Positions 2,411 through 48,294 of a stretch of DNA of 64,000 nt are shown one piece after another. A program made the position numbers and the translations under genes. The DNA is taken from assembly GCF_044324785.1 (NCBI RefSeq), contig NZ_CP172127.1, one strand, 5' to 3'. How positions within the stretch are numbered: the first letter of the stretch is position 1; every line of letters starts with the position of its first letter. Source of the stretch: Escherichia coli (lineage in GTDB: Bacteria > Pseudomonadota > Gammaproteobacteria > Enterobacterales > Enterobacteriaceae). Below the pieces are notes generated by a model that ran no database searches, was not told the DNA's origin, and was given only the letters and a program-made list of their open reading frames with translations.

Positions 2411-4066
2411 ATGACTAATCTTCCCCACTGGTGGCAAAACGGCGTTATCTACCAGATTTATCCAAAGAGTTTTCAGGACACCACGGGTAGCGGCACCGGC
2501 GATTTACGTGGCGTTATCCAGCGCCTGGACTATCTGCATAAACTGGGCGTTGATGCCATCTGGCTAACCCCCTTTTATGTCTCTCCCCAGGTCGATAACG
2601 GTTACGACGTAGCGAACTATACGGCGATTGATCCCACCTACGGCACACTGGACGATTTTGACGAACTGGTGACACAGGCAAAATCTCGCGGGATTCGTAT
2701 CATTCTCGATATGGTGTTTAACCATACCTCTACCCAACATGCCTGGTTTCGTGAGGCGCTGAACAAAGCAAGCCCTTACCGCCAGTTTTATATCTGGCGC
2801 GATGGAGAACCAGAAACACCACCGAACAACTGGCGTTCAAAATTTGGCGGTAGCGCGTGGCGCTGGCATGCGGAAAGCGAACAGTACTATTTGCATCTCT
2901 TTGCACCAGAACAGGCGGATCTCAACTGGGAGAATCCAGCGGTACGCGCAGAGCTGAAAAAAGTCTGTGAGTTCTGGGCCGATCGTGGGGTCGACGGGTT
3001 GCGCCTGGATGTGGTGAATCTGATCTCCAAAGACCCGCGTTTCCCTGATGACCTGGATGGCGACGGGCGTCGCTTCTACACCGACGGGCCACGAGCACAC
3101 GAGTTTTTGCACGAGATGAACCGCGATGTGTTTACGCCGCGCGGGTTAATGACCGTAGGTGAAATGTCCTCCACCAGCCTTGAGCATTGCCAGCGATATG
3201 CGGCACTGACAGGCAGTGAATTGTCGATGACCTTTAATTTTCATCACCTGAAAGTCGATTATCCCGGTGGTGAAAAATGGACGCTGGCTAAACCTGACTT
3301 TGTGGCGTTGAAAACATTGTTCCGCCACTGGCAACAAGGAATGCACAACGTGGCATGGAATGCCTTGTTCTGGTGTAACCACGATCAGCCGCGCATTGTT
3401 TCTCGCTTTGGTGATGAAGGTGAATACCGCGTGCCTGCGGCAAAAATGCTGGCGATGGTGCTGCATGGCATGCAGGGAACGCCATATATCTACCAGGGCG
3501 AAGAGATTGGCATGACTAACCCACATTTCACGCGCATTACTGACTATCGCGACGTGGAGAGCCTCAATATGTTTGCCGAGCTGCGCAACGATGGGCGTGA
3601 TGCCGACGAGTTATTGGCAATCCTCGCCAGTAAATCCCGTGACAACAGTCGCACACCCATGCAATGGAGCAACGGCGATAATGCCGGGTTTACGGCTGGC
3701 GAACCGTGGATTGGCCTGGGCGATAACTATCAACAAATCAACGTAGAAGCAGCGCTGGCCGATGAGTCCTCGGTGTTTTACACCTACCAAAAGTTAATCG
3801 CACTGCGTAAGCAAGAAGCCGTCCTGACATGGGGCGATTACCAGGATCTGCTGCCAAACAGCCCTGTATTGTGGTGCTATCGCCGTGAGTGGAAGGGGCA
3901 AACCTTGCTGGTCATTGCCAACCTTAGCCGTGAGACCCAACCCTGGCAGCCAGGGAAAATGCTCGGCAACTGGCAGCTTGTGATGCATAACTACGAAGAA
4001 GCCTCACCACAACCCTGTGCCATGACTTTACGGCCTTTTGAGGCTGTCTGGTGGTTACAGAAGTAA
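2411..4066 (+). CDS. treC: Trehalose-6-phosphate hydrolase (GH13 alpha-glucosidase)
   Basis: 551 aa from internal ATG (MTNLPHWWQNGVIYQIYPKSF...), GH13 motifs (DGLRLDVV, FNHT); longer ORF-track start at 2264 overlaps treB and is rejected. Confidence 0.9.
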   Translation: MTNLPHWWQNGVIYQIYPKSFQDTTGSGTGDLRGVIQRLDYLHKLGVDAIWLTPFYVSPQVDNGYDVANYTAIDPTYGTLDDFDELVTQAKSRGIRIILDMVFNHTSTQHAWFREALNKASPYRQFYIWRDGEPETPPNNWRSKFGGSAWRWHAESEQYYLHLFAPEQADLNWENPAVRAELKKVCEFWADRGVDGLRLDVVNLISKDPRFPDDLDGDGRRFYTDGPRAHEFLHEMNRDVFTPRGLMTVGEMSSTSLEHCQRYAALTGSELSMTFNFHHLKVDYPGGEKWTLAKPDFVALKTLFRHWQQGMHNVAWNALFWCNHDQPRIVSRFGDEGEYRVPAAKMLAMVLHGMQGTPYIYQGEEIGMTNPHFTRITDYRDVESLNMFAELRNDGRDADELLAILASKSRDNSRTPMQWSNGDNAGFTAGEPWIGLGDNYQQINVEAALADESSVFYTYQKLIALRKQEAVLTWGDYQDLLPNSPVLWCYRREWKGQTLLVIANLSRETQPWQPGKMLGNWQLVMHNYEEASPQPCAMTLRPFEAVWWLQK

Positions 4067-4078
4067 ATCTTCCCTAAG

Positions 4079-4108
4079 CCCCGGTAATGCCGATCATTCC
4101 GGGGTTTT
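4079..4108 (+). terminator. Rho-independent terminator after treC
   Basis: CCCCGG...CCGGGG stem followed by TTTT immediately after treC stop. Confidence 0.5.
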
Positions 4109-4239
4109 GTCTGTCAGTATGTTGTTTTTGTTGATTTTTCAACCAGCAAATTCATTAAAAAATTTACATAACGCTGTAGCGCCCGTCATCCGTACGCTCT
4201 GCTTTTTACTTTGAGCTACATCAAAAAAAGTTAAAACAT

Positions 4240-4330
4240 CCTTGATGCAAAGCACTATATATAGACTTTAAAATGCGTCCCAACCCAATATGTTGTATTA
4301 ATCGACTATAATTGCTACTACAGCTCCCCA
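4240..4330 (+). promoter_or_regulatory. nrdDG promoter region with two AT-rich near-palindromes (candidate NrdR boxes)
   Basis: cactatatatagac and ccaatatgttgtatt about 30 bp apart upstream of nrdD; assignment by resemblance to NrdR box consensus from memory. Confidence 0.3.
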
Positions 4331-4459
4331 CGAAAAAGGTGCGGCGTTGTGGATAAGCGGATGGCGATTGCGGAAAGCACCGGAAAACGAAACAAAAAAA
4401 CCGGAAAACGCCTTTCCCAATTTCTGTGGATAACCTGTTCTTAAAAATATGGAGCGATC

Positions 4460-6598
4460 ATGACACCGCATGTGATGAAACGAGACGGCTGCAAAGTGCC
4501 GTTTAAATCAGAGCGCATCAAAGAAGCGATTCTGCGTGCAGCTAAAGCAGCGGAAGTCGATGATGCCGATTATTGCGCCACTGTTGCTGCGGTTGTCAGC
4601 GAGCAGATGCAGGGCCGCAACCAGGTGGATATCAATGAGATCCAGACCGCAGTTGAAAACCAGCTGATGTCGGGTCCATACAAACAACTGGCTCGTGCTT
4701 ACATCGAGTACCGTCACGATCGCGACATTGAACGTGAAAAACGCGGTCGCCTGAACCAGGAAATCCGTGGTCTGGTCGAGCAGACCAACTCCTCGTTGCT
4801 CAACGAAAACGCCAACAAAGACAGCAAGGTGATTCCAACCCAGCGCGACCTGCTGGCCGGGATCGTGGCTAAACACTATGCACGCCAGCACCTGCTGCCG
4901 CGTGACGTGGTGCAGGCACATGAGCGTGGCGATATTCACTATCACGATCTCGATTACTCACCGTTCTTCCCGATGTTCAATTGCATGTTGATCGACCTGA
5001 AAGGCATGCTGACCCAGGGCTTTAAGATGGGGAACGCCGAGATTGAACCGCCGAAGTCGATCTCTACGGCAACCGCTGTAACTGCGCAGATTATTGCTCA
5101 GGTCGCCAGCCATATTTATGGCGGCACCACCATTAACCGTATCGATGAAGTGCTGGCACCGTTTGTCACCGCCAGCTACAACAAACATCGCAAGACCGCA
5201 GAAGAGTGGAACATCCCGGACGCCGAAGGCTACGCTAACTCTCGAACCATCAAAGAGTGCTACGATGCCTTCCAGTCGCTGGAGTACGAAGTAAACACCC
5301 TGCACACCGCCAACGGTCAAACACCGTTTGTGACCTTTGGTTTTGGTCTGGGCACCAGCTGGGAGTCGCGCCTGATTCAGGAATCTATCCTGCGTAACCG
5401 TATCGCAGGCCTCGGTAAAAACCGTAAAACTGCGGTGTTCCCGAAACTGGTGTTTGCGATTCGCGATGGCCTAAACCATAAAAAAGGCGATCCGAACTAC
5501 GACATCAAACAGCTGGCGCTGGAGTGCGCAAGCAAGCGCATGTATCCGGATATCCTGAACTACGATCAGGTAGTGAAAGTCACCGGTTCGTTTAAAACCC
5601 CGATGGGCTGCCGCAGCTTCCTCGGCGTGTGGGAAAATGAAAACGGCGAGCAGATCCACGATGGTCGTAACAACCTCGGCGTGATCAGCCTGAACCTGCC
5701 GCGTATTGCTCTGGAGGCAAAAGGCGATGAAGCCACCTTCTGGAAGCTGCTGGATGAACGTCTGGTGCTGGCACGTAAGGCGCTGATGACCCGTATCGCC
5801 CGTCTGGAAGGCGTGAAGGCACGCGTAGCTCCTATCCTCTATATGGAAGGTGCTTGTGGCGTGCGTCTGAATGCTGACGATGATGTTTCTGAAATCTTCA
5901 AAAACGGTCGTGCGTCTATTTCGCTGGGCTACATCGGCATCCACGAAACCATTAACGCGCTGTTCGGCGGCGAGCATGTTTACGACAACGAGCAGCTTCG
6001 CGCGAAAGGTATCGCGATTGTTGAACGTCTGCGTCAGGCGGTGGATCAGTGGAAAGAAGAAACGGGTTATGGTTTCAGTCTCTACAGCACGCCAAGTGAA
6101 AACCTGTGCGACCGCTTCTGCCGTCTCGATACCGCTGAGTTTGGCGTGGTGCCGGGCGTGACCGATAAAGGTTACTACACCAACAGTTTCCACCTTGATG
6201 TGGAGAAAAAGGTGAACCCGTATGACAAGATCGACTTTGAAGCGCCTTACCCGCCGCTGGCGAACGGTGGTTTCATTTGCTACGGCGAGTATCCAAACAT
6301 TCAGCACAACCTGAAGGCGCTGGAAGATGTCTGGGATTACAGCTATCAGCATGTACCGTATTACGGCACCAATACGCCGATCGATGAGTGCTACGAGTGT
6401 GGCTTTACTGGCGAGTTCGAGTGCACCAGCAAAGGCTTCACTTGCCCGAAATGTGGTAACCATGACGCCTCCCGTGTGTCGGTGACTCGCCGCGTGTGCG
6501 GATATTTAGGTAGCCCGGATGCACGTCCGTTTAACGCCGGTAAGCAGGAAGAAGTTAAGCGCCGCGTTAAACATTTGGGAAATGGGCAGATCGGTTAA
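4460..6598 (+). CDS. nrdD: Anaerobic ribonucleoside-triphosphate reductase (class III RNR)
   Basis: 712 aa; ATP-cone N-terminus, C-terminal Zn-ribbon CxxC...CxxC and glycyl-radical region (RVCGYLG). Confidence 0.92.
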   Translation: MTPHVMKRDGCKVPFKSERIKEAILRAAKAAEVDDADYCATVAAVVSEQMQGRNQVDINEIQTAVENQLMSGPYKQLARAYIEYRHDRDIEREKRGRLNQEIRGLVEQTNSSLLNENANKDSKVIPTQRDLLAGIVAKHYARQHLLPRDVVQAHERGDIHYHDLDYSPFFPMFNCMLIDLKGMLTQGFKMGNAEIEPPKSISTATAVTAQIIAQVASHIYGGTTINRIDEVLAPFVTASYNKHRKTAEEWNIPDAEGYANSRTIKECYDAFQSLEYEVNTLHTANGQTPFVTFGFGLGTSWESRLIQESILRNRIAGLGKNRKTAVFPKLVFAIRDGLNHKKGDPNYDIKQLALECASKRMYPDILNYDQVVKVTGSFKTPMGCRSFLGVWENENGEQIHDGRNNLGVISLNLPRIALEAKGDEATFWKLLDERLVLARKALMTRIARLEGVKARVAPILYMEGACGVRLNADDDVSEIFKNGRASISLGYIGIHETINALFGGEHVYDNEQLRAKGIAIVERLRQAVDQWKEETGYGFSLYSTPSENLCDRFCRLDTAEFGVVPGVTDKGYYTNSFHLDVEKKVNPYDKIDFEAPYPPLANGGFICYGEYPNIQHNLKALEDVWDYSYQHVPYYGTNTPIDECYECGFTGEFECTSKGFTCPKCGNHDASRVSVTRRVCGYLGSPDARPFNAGKQEEVKRRVKHLGNGQIG

Positions 6599-27785: not shown

Positions 27786-28340
27786 ATGACCCTACGCAAG
27801 ATTCTGGCACTCACCTGCCTGCTGTTGCCGATGATGGCTTCCGCACATCAGTTCGAAACCGGTCAGCGAGTGCCGCCGATTGGCATTACCGATCGTGGCG
27901 AGTTGGTGCTTGATAAAGATCAGTTTAGCTACAAAACCTGGAACAGCGCGCAGTTAGTGGGAAAAGTGCGAGTACTGCAACATATTGCTGGTCGCACCTC
28001 TGCAAAAGAGAAAAATGCGACGCTGATTGAAGCGATTAAATCAGCAAAGTTACCGCACGATCGTTACCAGACCACCACCATTGTTAACACCGACGACGCA
28101 ATTCCGGGTTCCGGCATGTTTGTGCGCAGCAGTCTGGAGAGTAATAAAAAGCTTTATCCCTGGTCGCAGTTTATTGTCGATAGCAATGGCGTCGCGCGCG
28201 GTGCCTGGCAGCTGGATGAAGAAAGTTCCGCTGTAGTGGTGCTGGATAAAGACGGTCGCGTGCAATGGGCCAAAGACGGGGCGCTCACACCGGAAGAGGT
28301 GCAGCAAGTGATGGACCTGCTGCAAAAGTTGCTCAAATAA
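27786..28340 (+). CDS. ytfJ: Periplasmic protein YtfJ
   Basis: 184 aa with signal peptide (MTLRKILALTCLLLPMMASAHQ). Confidence 0.85.
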   Translation: MTLRKILALTCLLLPMMASAHQFETGQRVPPIGITDRGELVLDKDQFSYKTWNSAQLVGKVRVLQHIAGRTSAKEKNATLIEAIKSAKLPHDRYQTTTIVNTDDAIPGSGMFVRSSLESNKKLYPWSQFIVDSNGVARGAWQLDEESSAVVVLDKDGRVQWAKDGALTPEEVQQVMDLLQKLLK

Positions 28341-28373
28341 TGGCAATAACATAAATTCTGCAAAAATAATTTT

Positions 28374-28400
28374 CCCCTATCGTTATCTATGGGATAGGGG
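28374..28400 (-). terminator. Hairpin with downstream T-run on minus strand; terminator of ytfI
   Basis: CCCCTATC...GATAGGGG stem flanked by AAAATAATTTT. Confidence 0.4.
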
Positions 28401-28429
28401 AATTAAGCCTCTGAGTTCTTACGCTGAAC

Positions 28430-29341
28430 TCATACTGGTAACGCTAGTTGCTTTTTTTTAAACGCCTCAATGGTCGATTTATATTTCTCGCAAATCTTTT
28501 CTTCGGTAATATCACTATCTGCGGCCAGATTCGCACTTACTATCGCATCCACTTGTTCGGCTAATTCGACTTGTTGGCAACCTGCATTAACCAGAAAATT
28601 ATAAATAAGAGAGTAATCTTCATCCTCCAAAACAACAGAGGAACCATTACGAAAACGTTCATCCCCTCCATAGATTTTAAGCGCAAAGCCCAAAGATTCT
28701 ATGACTATGGCAAAATTATCATCAATTATTTTTTCGTAAATATACCATCCATCGCATTCTTTAATTCCACCTCCTGGAATTTGGAGGTCAAATTTACCCC
28801 GTTTTAATTTACTTACTATATCATCCAATACAGCATAACCTAAAGACACGTCACCAAACGCCTGGCGAATATAACCTTTAATCCTTTCCGGTATGTCAGA
28901 CTGTTTTTTCTGCAGAATATCCCAGGCATACAATCTTCTGTTTTGTTCTAACGGAAACTCGCGGTTTTTGAAATCCATGAATGAGTTATACTCATTTATT
29001 GTTATGGGAATTTCTTCGTATTCAAATCCACTGCCTCGCAATGTCATTATATATTCGGCACCGTTATCTTTAAGGCTGAAACTGATAAGAAACTTATCCA
29101 TGGCGTTAACAGTTTCATTTTTTGATGAAAGTACCTGATAACTATTTTTATCAATCTGAGTTGCGCAACGAAAGAACTCCCGCAAAGTTAACAGGCTATC
29201 ATAATTCGAAATCCAATCTTTTTTATTAAATGCATGCTGGATATTGTTAAAAAAATTGTTTGAATGTGTTTTTGTATGCGATGATTTTACGAATAACTCC
29301 ACCGCACCAATAAAATTATTGTGTCTGATCCTGGGTAACAT
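28430..29341 (-). CDS. ytfI: Uncharacterised protein YtfI (AT-rich orphan gene)
   Basis: 303 aa, no recognisable motifs, markedly AT-rich relative to flanks; position between ytfJ and cysQ matches ytfI. Confidence 0.7.
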   Translation of the reverse strand: MLPRIRHNNFIGAVELFVKSSHTKTHSNNFFNNIQHAFNKKDWISNYDSLLTLREFFRCATQIDKNSYQVLSSKNETVNAMDKFLISFSLKDNGAEYIMTLRGSGFEYEEIPITINEYNSFMDFKNREFPLEQNRRLYAWDILQKKQSDIPERIKGYIRQAFGDVSLGYAVLDDIVSKLKRGKFDLQIPGGGIKECDGWYIYEKIIDDNFAIVIESLGFALKIYGGDERFRNGSSVVLEDEDYSLIYNFLVNAGCQQVELAEQVDAIVSANLAADSDITEEKICEKYKSTIEAFKKKQLALPV

Positions 29342-29552
29342 ATGGCTACCTTATTTTATTTGGTTATTTTATGTCGCCATTAAATATCTCATTATAGAAG
29401 TAAACTATCAAAAAACGCTCATTATTAAAATGTAACTTATTAGCAATTGAATTTTTGCACTTTAAATACAATCTCTTTTTATTTATAACTTTTTAGGTTG
29501 GGAGAAATCAGGATGGCAGATTCAGGAAATACACTGTTTCTGCCATCTGAAT

Positions 29553-30293
29553 TTAGTAAATAGACACTCTGAATCCCGGATTCAGGAACGACTCGCGCGG
29601 AGTGTAATCCAGCGGTTTACCCTGCCAGTCGTGAACGTGCGCTCCGGCAGCTGCAGCCACAGCATGACCAGCGGCGGTATCCCAAATATTCGTTGGTCCG
29701 AAGCGCGGGTACAGCTGCGCCTGCCCTTCCGCCACCAGGCAGAATTTCAGCGAAGAGCCGATGGACGTGGTCTGATGTTCGCCAAGCTGTTGCAGATACT
29801 CTTTCAGCTCCGCATCTGCATGGGAACGGCTAATAACGACCAATGGCGGGCGCGCATCGCGGACCTGAATCTGCTTGCGCACGCCGCACTCTTCTTTCCA
29901 CGCTTTGCCTTCTGCCGCGCTGTACATTACGTTCATTACCGGCGCATACACCACGCCTAAAATCGGTTTTCCATGGTCAATGAGCGCAATGTTAACGGTG
30001 AATTCGCCATTACGTTTAATAAACTCTTTAGTACCATCCAGTGGGTCTACCAGCCAGTAACGCTGCCAGTGCTGACGGACTTCCCAACCGGGAGGATCTT
30101 CTTCAGAAAGCACCGGAATATCCGGTGTCAGCGTACGTAAACCGTCCATGATAACGGTGTGTGCGGCAATATCCGCTGCCGTTACCGGAGAATTGTCCGC
30201 TTTGCTGACGACGTCCATCGGTTTCGTCCCGTCGTAGACCTGCATAATGGCATCGCCTGCATTCCGTGCAAGCTGGCATACTTGATCTAACAT
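29553..30293 (-). CDS. cysQ: 3'(2'),5'-bisphosphate nucleotidase
   Basis: 246 aa inositol-monophosphatase fold ([17 protein letters not shown]). Confidence 0.92.
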
Positions 30294-30482
30294 TTCTCCA
30301 CCTCGTCTCTGTGAGCGGTGTTAACTTATTGTTTTACTTATACCCTATCGTTAATGAATGCGCCAACTGTGATAGTGTCATCATTTTCAAAGCGTAAAAT
30401 TGTGGCATTCTTCACTGTTCTATAAGTAAGACGTTTATTCTCCCTTTTCTTTCGTATTCCCGATGATAAAAGGATGTCCCTG

Positions 30483-38329: not shown

Positions 38330-38968
38330 ATGCCCGGGCGCTTTGAACTAAAACCAACCCTGGAGAAAGTCTGGCACGCGCCGGACAATTTTCGCTTCAT
38401 GGACCCGCTGCCGCCGATGCATCGTCGGGGGATCATTATTGCCGCCATTGTATTGGTGGTCGGATTTCTGCTTCCATCTGATGATACGCCCAACGCGCCG
38501 GTGGTGACGCGTGAAGCGCAGTTAGATATTCAGTCGCAATCACAACCGCCGACAGAAGAACAGCTGCGGGCGCAATTAGTCACCCCACAAAATGATCCTG
38601 ATCAGGTGGCTCCGGTCGCTCCAGAACCTATACAGGAAGGCCAGCCAGAAGAGCAGCCGCAAACCACCCAAACGCAACCATTCCAGCCAGATAGCGGAAT
38701 TGATAATCAATGGCGCTCTTACCGTGTCGAACCCGGTAAAACGATGGCGCAGCTGTTCCGCGACCACGGACTGCCCGCTACCGATGTCTATGCAATGGCG
38801 CAGGTAGAAGGCGCGGGTAAGCCGCTGAGTAATTTGCAAAACGGGCAGATGGTGAAAATCCGCCAGAACGCCAGCGGCGTGGTGACGGGCTTAACCATTG
38901 ATACGGGGAATAATCAACAGGTCCTGTTTACCCGCCAGCCGGATGGCAGTTTTATTCGTGCGCGGTAG
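38330..38968 (+). CDS. ytfB: OapA/LysM-like cell-division-associated protein
   Basis: 212 aa from internal ATG ([23 protein letters not shown]...), membrane anchor, Pro/Gln-rich linker. Confidence 0.8.
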
Positions 38969-39599
38969 ATGAAGGATCAACCAAAAGCCAGCTAAGGAGC
39001 GTCTCTTTGATGACCTTACGTCTGGCTTCCAGTGCCTGGGGGGAAACCATACTGATATGATAAACTAGGCCAAGCGTATGCTGGTTGATCAAATAATATC
39101 CCCCAAGCGCAGCAATATTAATATTCACCTGCAATGGGTCGATATCTGGCTTAAAAATATTGTGTTTCTTCCCTTCATCCAATAAGGATTCCATTAACTG
39201 CAAGTGCGCATGGTTAATTTCTAAGAGACGCTGTGATTTTGCATAATGCACACCTTTACTTTGATTTTCACTATGCACAATTTTTAAAAACCAGGGGTTA
39301 GCAATATAATAATCCCATGTAAAATCAATAATTTTCTCAATGGCTTTTTGTGGCGGAAGATCTGAGAAATCAAGGGCCTTTTCTTTTTGTCGAATATCGT
39401 TCCAGGTATATTCCAGTACTTCAATAAATAAATTTTCTTTATTACCAAAGTGATGATAAACCGTCTGTTTACTACACCCCGCAGCCTTAACAATATTATC
39501 GACCCTGGCCCCTTCATAACCATATTCGGCAAATTCATTAACCGCGCATAACAGCAGCTTTTCCTTCAGGCTCTGTACGTTGCTGGTATCAAGATACAT
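38952..39599 (-). CDS. TetR/AcrR-family transcriptional regulator, divergent from the accessory operon (possibly the intact form of K-12 ytfA)
   Basis: 215 aa from ATG at 39599; N-terminal HTH ([23 protein letters not shown]); 3' end overlaps ytfB by about 17 nt. Confidence 0.8.
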
Positions 39600-45951: not shown

Positions 45952-47229
45952 ATGAATAAAATAAAGAATTATCGATGGCATATGATTGCCCTCGTATGCT
46001 TTATCACTGTAATCAATTATCTGGACAGAACGGCGTTAGGTATTGCGGCTCCAACGATTATGGAGACAACCGGAATAACTAAAGAGCAATATTCATGGAT
46101 TGTCAGTGCATTCCAGTTGGCCTATACATTAGGGCAACCGGTAATGGGCTTCTTTATTGATACCGTGGGTCTGAAGTTAAGTTTTGCGATATGTGCCGCA
46201 ATTTGGGGCCTGGCGACAATGGGCCATGCACTAACCGGAACGTGGTCTGGTCTGGCATTTATGCGCGCCCTGATGGGTTTCAGCGAAGCGTCGGCAATTC
46301 CGGCGGGTGTAAAAACCGCATCAACATGGTTCCCGGCAAAAGAGCGTGGCGTGGCGACAGGTGTTTTCAATATGGGCACCTCACTCGGCGCGATGCTTGC
46401 TCCACCGTTGATTGCCTGGTGCATTATGTTTCATAGCTGGCAATTTGCGTTTATTGTTTCAGGTAGCCTTGCTTTGCTCGCGGCTTTATTTTGGTTCTTT
46501 TGTTATAAAGATCCGAAAGATGCCAAACGCCTTTCTGATGAAGAGCGCCACTATATTGAATCAGGGCAAGAACAGCATCTTAAAACAGATAAGAAAGAAA
46601 AAACGTCAATCAAGCATATCCTCAGCCAACGTAATTTCTGGGGGATTGGCATCGCGCGTTTTCTCGCAGACCCGGCATGGGGAACCATTAACTTCTGGGT
46701 GCCGATTTTCTTCGTCGAAACGCTGCATTTTAGCCTGAAAGAAATTGCCATGTTCGTCTGGCTGCCTTTCCTGCTGGGCGATCTCGGCTGTTTAGCCAGT
46801 GGTTTTGTCGCGAAGTTCTTCCACGATCGCGGCGTGAGTTTAATTAACTCACGAAGAATTACCTTCACTATTGCAGCCGTCATTATGATGACGATTGGCC
46901 TGGTGAGTATTGTCGAAAATCCCTACATTGCCGTATTACTGATTAGTATTGGCGCGTTCTCGCATCAATGTCTTTCTACTGTAGCAGCAACTCTGGGTGG
47001 CGATCTGTTCAAAAAAGACGAAGTAGCTACCGCAGTGGGTATGGCAGGAGCCTGTGCGTGGAGCGGTCAGTTGATTTTCAACCTGTTCATCGGGGCATTC
47101 GTTCACATTATCGGCTTCGCGCCGTTCTTTATTGCCCTGGCTTTCTTTGACATTATTGGTGCTATTGCGTTGTGGACGCTTATCAAAGTTAAAGATGAAG
47201 AACCGCAAGTACAGCTAGCTACCCATTAA
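45952..47229 (+). CDS. MFS transporter, anion:cation symporter (ACS) family, ExuT/DgoT-like
   Basis: 425 aa; N-terminus NYRWHMIALVCFITVINYLDRTALGIAAPTIME and FPAKERG loop resemble hexuronate/aldonate transporters. Confidence 0.85.
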   Translation: MNKIKNYRWHMIALVCFITVINYLDRTALGIAAPTIMETTGITKEQYSWIVSAFQLAYTLGQPVMGFFIDTVGLKLSFAICAAIWGLATMGHALTGTWSGLAFMRALMGFSEASAIPAGVKTASTWFPAKERGVATGVFNMGTSLGAMLAPPLIAWCIMFHSWQFAFIVSGSLALLAALFWFFCYKDPKDAKRLSDEERHYIESGQEQHLKTDKKEKTSIKHILSQRNFWGIGIARFLADPAWGTINFWVPIFFVETLHFSLKEIAMFVWLPFLLGDLGCLASGFVAKFFHDRGVSLINSRRITFTIAAVIMMTIGLVSIVENPYIAVLLISIGAFSHQCLSTVAATLGGDLFKKDEVATAVGMAGACAWSGQLIFNLFIGAFVHIIGFAPFFIALAFFDIIGAIALWTLIKVKDEEPQVQLATH

Positions 47230-47499: not shown

Positions 47500-48294
47500 A
47501 TGACATTACCAACCACTATTTATTCATTTCCTGCATATTCACCCCGTTTTTCGTCCACCGACAAACCAGTAAAATTAAAATTTCATCAATACGCACGCGC
47601 TACATTACTTTCAAATCGTGGAAGAGATCATAATTGCGATGGCAGACATACTGTTGAGATCCACAAACTAGATCTCTCAGACTGGCAAGCATTCAATAAA
47701 CTAGCGATGGCGTGTAATGCTTACGATGGAATAACAATGAATGGTGATAATTCTTTTGGATGGAACCATGAAGCTACATTAGATAATATTCACGCCCAGA
47801 AATACAATAAAGCTTACGCGGGTGCGAGGTTAACCGCAGAACTGAAATATTTATTGCAAGATGTCGAATCCTTCGAACCCAACAGTAAATACACAATACA
47901 CGAGGTTGTTTTGGGTCCAGGTTATGGTACTCCAGACTATACCGGCCAAACGATAGGATACGTTGTAACCCTTCCTGCCCAAATGCCTAATTGCTGGTCA
48001 TCTGAACTACCAACAATCGATCTTTATATCGACCAACTTCGCACTGTTACAGGCGTTTCTAATGCCCTCGGATTCATCATTGCTGCATTGCTAAACGCGT
48101 ATTCTGATTTACCCCATGATTTGAAAATTGGTCTGCGTTCCTTATCAAGTTCAGCAGCAATCTACTCGGGTTTGGGTTTCGAGCGAGTGCCGCAGGGCCG
48201 AGACATAAGGTGCGATCATATGCATCTAACGCCAGCAAACCATCCTGAATTATGGACACAAGAGAATGGTGAATGGATCTACTTGCGAAACTAA
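47500..48294 (+). CDS. yjfZ: Uncharacterised DUF2686-like protein YjfZ (AT-rich gene)
   Basis: 264 aa, no motifs recognised, preceded by 270-bp AT-rich spacer; position next to rplI matches yjfZ. Confidence 0.7.
   Translation: MTLPTTIYSFPAYSPRFSSTDKPVKLKFHQYARATLLSNRGRDHNCDGRHTVEIHKLDLSDWQAFNKLAMACNAYDGITMNGDNSFGWNHEATLDNIHAQKYNKAYAGARLTAELKYLLQDVESFEPNSKYTIHEVVLGPGYGTPDYTGQTIGYVVTLPAQMPNCWSSELPTIDLYIDQLRTVTGVSNALGFIIAALLNAYSDLPHDLKIGLRSLSSSAAIYSGLGFERVPQGRDIRCDHMHLTPANHPELWTQENGEWIYLRN

Follow-up and report, generated by a model that had tools for sequence, protein, structure and literature searches.

The entire spacer between the convergent genes ytfJ and cysQ, in the 64,000-nt stretch of Escherichia coli DNA that we analyzed (the window), is very probably an old xenogeneic islet that is coated by H-NS, carries a single gene, the real and Escherichia-only ytfI, and persists in the species as a presence/absence polymorphism. 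That ytfI lies in an accessory islet which is AT-rich and bound by H-NS is already known and has been illustrated in the literature. What is added here relative to Higashi et al. (2016) is that the insertion, judged by sequence comparison, is old rather than specific to K-12. Also added are the purifying selection acting on ytfI with its asymmetry between domains, firmer evidence that the gene is an orphan, the reason why the window allele encodes 303 aa and the other cargo that is found at the same junction.

The islet occupies 28341..29552 (no strand assigned), and its limits are based on GC content, on its absence elsewhere and on the alignment of junctions. It is flanked on the left by the core gene ytfJ (27786..28340, plus strand; PF09695) and on the right by the core gene cysQ (29553..30293, minus strand), which encodes 3'(2'),5'-bisphosphate nucleotidase. 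The GC content of the islet is 34.7% as compared with 51.3% for the 64-kb window, and among all 1212-nt sliding windows across it (mean 51.3%, sd 3.7%) the segment 28341-29552 is the minimum, with z = -4.5. The initial annotation had described ytfI and its flanks as far more AT-rich than ytfJ and cysQ; this description holds, and the value lies 4.5 standard deviations below the mean rather than within one. The ytfI ORF itself has a GC content of 36.0% and the 211-nt spacer upstream of it (29342-29552) one of 28.0%, while the border with cysQ is sharp, the GC fraction passing from 0.26-0.33 to 0.55 over ~200 nt. TpA steps are 2-fold denser and A/T tracts 3-fold denser in the islet than in the whole window. 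The 10-mer H-NS motif is not enriched, with densities of 1.65 vs 1.18 per kb. Codon usage, the calculation of which had been proposed together with that of GC skew, was also examined. The GC3 of ytfI is 0.33, the lowest among the 43 long ORFs (mean 0.574, sd 0.080), and a leave-one-out codon-usage index ranks the gene third from the bottom of the same 43 (z = -1.65). ytfI deviates less by codon usage than by GC. The other low-GC ORFs in the window are one for a TetR-family regulator (38952-39599, minus strand; 39.8% GC), an MFS transporter gene (45952-47229, plus strand) of which the 3' part and the downstream spacer are below 40% GC, and a gene for a DUF2686 protein (47500-48294, plus strand; 42.4% GC), the codon-usage index of which is the lowest of all 43 ORFs.

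ytfI (28430..29341, minus strand; 303 aa) is the sole long ORF between ytfJ and cysQ, and RefSeq labels its CDS as either 'protein YtfI' or 'hypothetical protein'. As had been noted from the letters, the coding is rich in Asn (6.9%), Lys (7.9%), Ile (9.2%) and Phe (6.6%); Leu, Glu, Ser and Asp are abundant as well. The protein has a pI of 5.3 and a GRAVY of -0.35, and neither a transmembrane segment nor a signal-peptide-like N-terminus was detected (maximum 19-residue Kyte-Doolittle value 1.28). The initial annotation had set the 303 residues predicted here against a length of about 312 for K-12. That figure is correct, and the discrepancy lies in the strain: K-12 YtfI has 312 aa, and the window allele, 95% identical in protein and 96.7% in DNA, is 9 codons shorter because of a single substitution, TTA>TGA, at codon 304. 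The resulting TGA stop (28430..28432, minus strand) replaces the TTA that encodes Leu304 in K-12, and the tail LVRRKNSET (9 residues) is lost. This shorter form is not peculiar to one strain: annotations of the closest genomes contain the 912-nt CDS too, and a divergent allele (P0003, 89% identical) also terminates at the codon of the window allele's stop. Other alleles encode 304, 306, 307, 312 or 319 aa, and the C-terminal tail of YtfI therefore appears to be poorly constrained.

Both ends of the islet carry inverted repeats. Between the stops of ytfJ and ytfI there is a perfect 10-bp repeat with an 11-nt loop (28372..28402, no strand; TTCCCCTATC...GATAGGGGAA), which could function as a bidirectional terminator-like hairpin. 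Directly downstream of the cysQ stop, an imperfect repeat (29505..29554, minus strand; GATGGCAGA...TCTGCCATC), conserved in the divergent allele of locus L010, is a putative cysQ terminator supplied by the islet. In the 5' region of ytfI (29342..29552, minus strand; 28% GC), a Shine-Dalgarno-like AAGG (the complement of 29349-29352) precedes the ATG by 7 nt, and a single promoter-like pair of hexamers is present, TTGATA-17-GATATT with TG (29411->29383); promoter-like matches in this region are not above shuffled expectation. An Rfam scan revealed no RNA family inside the islet. Outside it, in the cysQ-cpdB intergenic region, a full-length match to the Rfam sRNA ES239 (157 bits, E = 7e-32) was observed at 30360-30482 (minus strand). 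Terminal inverted or direct repeats, a transposase and an integrase were looked for in the islet and none was found, and the candidate interpretation of the cysQ-side border as a degenerate duplicate of the 3' end of ytfJ was rejected as not significant (p ~0.23). Mobility machinery and an identifiable donor are not obligatory features of xenogeneic islets. Neither a donor nor a mobility signature, a significant target duplication included, was found.

The comparison of filled and empty sites is what identifies the segment as an insertion. ytfJ and cysQ are present in 5420 of the 5426 complete E. coli genomes, and the spacer sequence is found in 1622 of the 5426 (30%), leaving ~70% without it. 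In genomes that do not carry ytfI, ytfJ and cysQ together measure 1288 nt and overlap by 11 nt; in strain PK8276, for example, ytfJ (1501-2058) and cysQ (2048-2788) share 11 nt and the junction reads ...CTGCTGCATAAATTAATTAATAAATAGACAC.... We also compared the cysQ loci of 80 Enterobacterales species, with Citrobacter, Enterobacter, Klebsiella, Lelliottia, Pantoea and Erwinia among the genera sampled. ytfJ could be located in 79 of these loci, and in 75 of the 79 the two genes abut, overlap or lie no more than ~150 nt apart. In the alignment, essentially the same overlapping junction is shared by Citrobacter, Enterobacter, Klebsiella, Lelliottia and three other Escherichia species. The junction is empty in most of the loci sampled, and therefore the empty arrangement appears to be ancestral and the 1.2-kb segment to have been added in Escherichia. 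Horizontal acquisition, which the initial annotation had proposed together with a presence/absence comparison to check it, is thereby supported: ~70% of E. coli genomes, and almost all of the 80 loci, have a vacant orthologous site.

The empty sites of E. coli have features of their own. When the empty junction at L004 2035-2062, which reads CATAAATTAATTAATAAATAG, was compared with window positions 28320-28345 and 29540-29565, we observed that E. coli empty sites have AATTAATAAATAG in common with the cysQ-side borders of the filled sites in L010 and E. albertii. Relative to the empty sites of other Escherichia and Citrobacter (CATAAGTTGCTCAATAAATAG), CATAAATTAATTAATAAATAG has four clustered GC>AT changes. 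It is possible that AATTAATAAATAG at the empty junctions is an excision scar and that some 'empty' alleles of E. coli are secondary excisions, not the untouched ancestral state. If there was one gain followed by many losses or excisions, empty alleles with the AATTAATAAATAG scar are expected to be nested within filled clades. If the ancestral empty allele was retained, the GCTCAATAAATAG form is expected in empty lineages that branch deeply. Insertion sequences are also eroding the islet in some strains: in ETEC1738 (L002 2866-3945) an IS1 stands in place of ytfI and ytfJ is truncated, and in two other strains (hits H38 and H46) an IS1 or IS2 has inserted inside the ytfJ-cysQ interval.

Divergent alleles at the same site bear on the age of the insertion. 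The protein search recovered alleles whose products share 78% (P0008) and 70% (P0010) identity with the window protein, and on the contigs that carry them the gene lies between cysQ and ytfJ, or adjoins cysQ with an IS on the opposite side. In L010, a GTDB species representative labeled E. coli, the 70% allele sits in a 1236-nt gap. Synonymous divergence of ytfI is equal to or slightly greater than that of the flanking core genes. Between the window and K-12, dS is 0.10 for ytfI, 0.105 for cysQ and 0.065 for ytfJ; between the window and L007 it is 0.36 for ytfI and 0.05-0.34 for eight flanking genes; between the window and L005 it is 0.72 for ytfI and 0.31-0.73 for four flanking genes. The islet has 32-33% GC in the divergent Escherichia lineages too. 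Because ytfI has diverged together with its flanks across Escherichia lineages, the acquisition is judged to be old, and the simplest reading is a single ancient insertion that preceded the split of these lineages, after which the islet was inherited with its flanks and did not ameliorate. Equal dS could also result from movement of the islet and its flanks together by homologous recombination between lineages. In L005, from the lineage with the 70% ytfI allele, cysQ (4050-4790, compared with window 29553-30293) has a dS of 0.73 and the adjacent cpdB one of 0.31. This elevated divergence beside the islet fits either the H-NS-associated diversification of Higashi et al. (2016) or a recombination boundary.

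Two other histories were weighed against an old insertion. A ytfI that already stood between ytfJ and cysQ in the enterobacterial ancestor, and has since been lost by deletion from most lineages, would be compatible with the derived, AT-enriched bases and the AATTAATAAATAG at the E. coli empty junction, which could reflect excision within Escherichia. However, the 75 of 79 loci in which a homologous close or overlapping junction has no ytfI, and an islet GC content that is foreign to the region, make deletion from an ancestral state extremely improbable. An acquisition that was recent and strain-specific, with a young islet in some E. coli clones, is highly improbable as well. It would account for the patchy presence in 30% of complete E. 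coli genomes, for the unameliorated GC of 35% and for the segment being 'K-12-specific' in a three-strain comparison (PMC4720273), but not for alleles of 70-78% identity that divergent Escherichia lineages carry at one and the same position, nor for allelic dS values that equal or slightly exceed those of the flanking core genes, nor for a dS of 0.10-0.16 between ytfI alleles within E. coli. The site-matched divergent alleles and a dS that tracks the flanks largely refute the reading of a young islet.

The pattern of substitution indicates that ytfI is a real protein-coding gene under purifying selection. Overall dN/dS is 0.21-0.41 vs 0.00-0.14 in the flanking genes, and the two halves of the protein differ: the N-terminal one (residues 1-147), under fairly strong purifying selection, has values of 0.11-0.22, and the C-terminal one, which evolves faster, has values of 0.23-0.64. 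A patch at approximately residues 161-190 is near-neutral, with pN/pS ~1. At the composition of ytfI a stop is expected about once per 14 codons, and the probability of 303 open codons is ~3e-10. Every full-length allele keeps the frame open, across a dS of ~0.7.

Homologues of this gene were found within Escherichia and Shigella only. YtfI has no match in Pfam or NCBIfam at E <= 10, in agreement with the earlier observation that it has no recognisable domain, and a search of 5.8 billion proteins returned 18 clusters, all of them from Escherichia/Shigella and none pointing to a housekeeping family. An exhaustive phmmer search of 1.84 billion representatives yielded only fragments of ytfI (at least 68% identity) and a single other match, an Ig-repeat protein (P0036) that we consider noise. 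In phage genomes the only tblastn matches had E = 0.1, the viral contigs scanned contained no ytfI homologue, and the 'plasmid' matches were traced to mislabeled chromosomes or to a 655-kb replicon, with no true plasmid among them. The best E value in a profile search of PDB sequences was 0.72. Structure prediction, also proposed in the initial annotation, gave no confident fold: both AlphaFold models are of low confidence (pLDDT 50.5 and 53.0), and no fold match was found. A comparison of the two halves of YtfI for internal duplication gave an hhalign probability of 0.2%. Judged by these searches, YtfI is an Escherichia-restricted orphan in which both of the defining properties of an ORFan, a narrow taxonomic range and maintained coding, are seen. 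Bacterial ORFans are reportedly AT-rich and fast-evolving. Like them, ytfI has no homologue outside the genus, a low GC content and a dN/dS ~10x that of the neighboring core genes; unlike typical ORFans, it is longer (303 aa) and its frame has stayed intact across species-level divergence.

What ytfI is and where it came from admits several readings. If ytfI were a non-functional ORF, fortuitous or decaying, and the only thing that mattered were the H-NS-binding DNA, then the missing homologues and domain, the low-confidence structure prediction, a C-terminal tail that ends variously at 303, 304, 306, 307, 312 or 319 aa, the many truncated protein clusters, the IS insertions in some strains and a dN/dS an order of magnitude above the flanks would all be accommodated. 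This is nevertheless very unlikely given a 300-codon frame that stays open across dS ~0.7 despite the stops expected (P ~3e-10), the dN/dS of 0.11-0.22 in the N-terminal half and a plausible Shine-Dalgarno sequence upstream. A question that is compatible with the islet explanation is whether the gene arose de novo, within the inserted AT-rich DNA after its arrival in Escherichia, or has changed so much since leaving its donor that the relationship is no longer visible. Such an origin is suggested by the AT-rich codon composition, by 1.84 billion representatives among which nothing besides ytfI fragments is related at E <= 1e-3, by phages, plasmids and viral contigs in which nothing was found, and by the missing fold match. 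Against it, a de novo gene of 303 aa would be a long one, good constraint on the N-terminal half is evident even in the comparison that reaches furthest back, and the donor may simply be unsampled; we consider this origin unlikely.

The initial annotation had also likened the islet to immunity-like orphans, a suggestion that we set aside. An orphan immunity or anti-phage defense protein would be consistent with a gene that is accessory, AT-rich, H-NS-bound and polymorphic in presence, with the patch of pN/pS ~1 at residues 161-190 and with weak matches to PADLOC Cas6b (E = 0.001, 40 residues, 112-152) and to phrog_3250, a family of unknown function (E = 0.002). However, these two matches are short, marginal and overlap in the same compositionally biased segment of YtfI, and we treat them as noise. 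YtfI also matches no Pfam immunity family, and selection on it is purifying overall, not diversifying. The gene stands alone between core genes, with ytfJ, cysQ, cpdB and ytfK as neighbors in every allele examined, and has no toxin, CDI, Rhs, T6SS or defense gene beside it. The orphan immunity genes of CDI, Rhs and T6SS loci are likewise accessory, being small, often AT-rich and lineage-restricted, but they follow toxin loci and can be assigned to recognizable immunity families, whereas ytfI is solitary and resembles no such family. An immunity or defense role is decidedly unlikely on this evidence. It is quite unlikely, too, that YtfI is a structurally novel, Escherichia-only conflict protein maintained at an insertion hotspot as a balanced polymorphism older than E. 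coli. If that were true, the conserved N-terminal domain and the fast-evolving 161-190 segment would reflect a conflict-type function, such as recognition of phages or competitors, that is released when H-NS silencing is lifted. We propose, with low confidence, that YtfI has a niche-specific accessory function and is expressed only when silencing by H-NS is relieved.

The binding of H-NS to this islet comes from the published record. Using ChAP-seq, Higashi et al. (2016) showed ytfI as an inserted K-12-specific segment bound by H-NS (PMC4720273, S10 Fig). In K-12 the binding spreads from ytfI to cpdB, cysQ, ytfJ and ytfK, and the signal is absent in SE11 and SE15, both of which have no ytfI (PMC4720273). 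The suggestion in the initial annotation that the islet is a target of H-NS is thus supported by binding on the K-12 allele (PMC4720273), which is 96.7% identical in DNA to the window allele. Compared with H-NS-bound islets, and specifically with the K-12 ytfI segment (PMC4720273), the present islet has an identical location and cargo gene, is AT-rich and variable between strains, and has a dN that is elevated relative to core genes; its allele differs from that of K-12 in being 9 codons shorter, at 96.7% DNA identity. Other mentions of ytfI in the literature include a strong and disputed sigma-32 ChIP-chip signal, discussed as a possible artefact (PMC3870955, PMC2996942), a place on a proteome-chip list for YtfI and a listing of ytfI in the revised genotype of JM83. 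An entry for HOCl tolerance in an ASKA overexpression screen (PMC8228696) is the only ytfI phenotype that we found in the literature, where we found no functional study of the gene.

The ytfJ/cysQ junction carries other cargo elsewhere. In E. albertii NBRC 107761 (L014 4742-6245) an islet of 33% GC encodes a 385-aa pentapeptide-repeat protein, which has weak similarity, well below the cut-off (E = 4e-5), to the repeat region of a T3SS effector family. We looked for a relationship between this cargo and the ytfI islet and found no similarity. Citrobacter youngae ATCC 29220 (L025 4742-6861) carries genes for a radical-SAM/SPASM maturase and for a TIGR04222 membrane protein with a Cys/Gly/Ser-rich tail, and its insert is flanked by a 42-nt direct duplication (40/42) of the ytfJ 3' end. 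Intestinirhabdus alba (L089 4745-6825) has an SSF-family symporter at the junction. Like the ytfI islet, these three inserts (1.5-2.1 kb) lie exactly between intact ytfJ and cysQ genes, but their cargo is unrelated to ytfI, with no DNA or protein similarity, and the clear 42-nt target duplication of C. youngae has no counterpart in the ytfI islet. As unrelated cargo has arrived independently in four lineages, the ends of convergent overlapping genes may be tolerated as insertion sites, and the overlapping convergent stops of ytfJ and cysQ are suggested to be a tolerated insertion hotspot.

In the reading that we favor, an old islet coated by H-NS, approximately 1.2 kb of AT-rich DNA would have inserted exactly where the convergent ytfJ and cysQ genes ancestrally overlap, and would have supplied each of the two with its own stop region and hairpin. 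This event would predate the split of E. coli from at least two divergent Escherichia lineages. Because the islet is AT-rich it would be coated by H-NS, with binding that spreads into cpdB, cysQ, ytfJ and ytfK, and the coating probably keeps the ytfI promoter largely off under laboratory conditions. The cargo, ytfI, is predicted to encode a soluble, acidic protein of ~35 kDa that is restricted to Escherichia, and the islet persists as a presence/absence polymorphism, being present in ~30% of E. coli. These results leave current understanding unchanged, and the finding is largely ordinary, a textbook example of this class of islet. Besides the repeated use of the ytfJ/cysQ junction by unrelated cargo, its interest lies in two points. 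ytfI is a K-12 'y-gene' that has no homologue or confident fold and is yet under purifying selection, and it can serve as a test case for long-lived orphans. The islet has kept a GC content of 32-36% over the timescale of the Escherichia lineages, which bears on the question of why DNA bound by H-NS fails to ameliorate.
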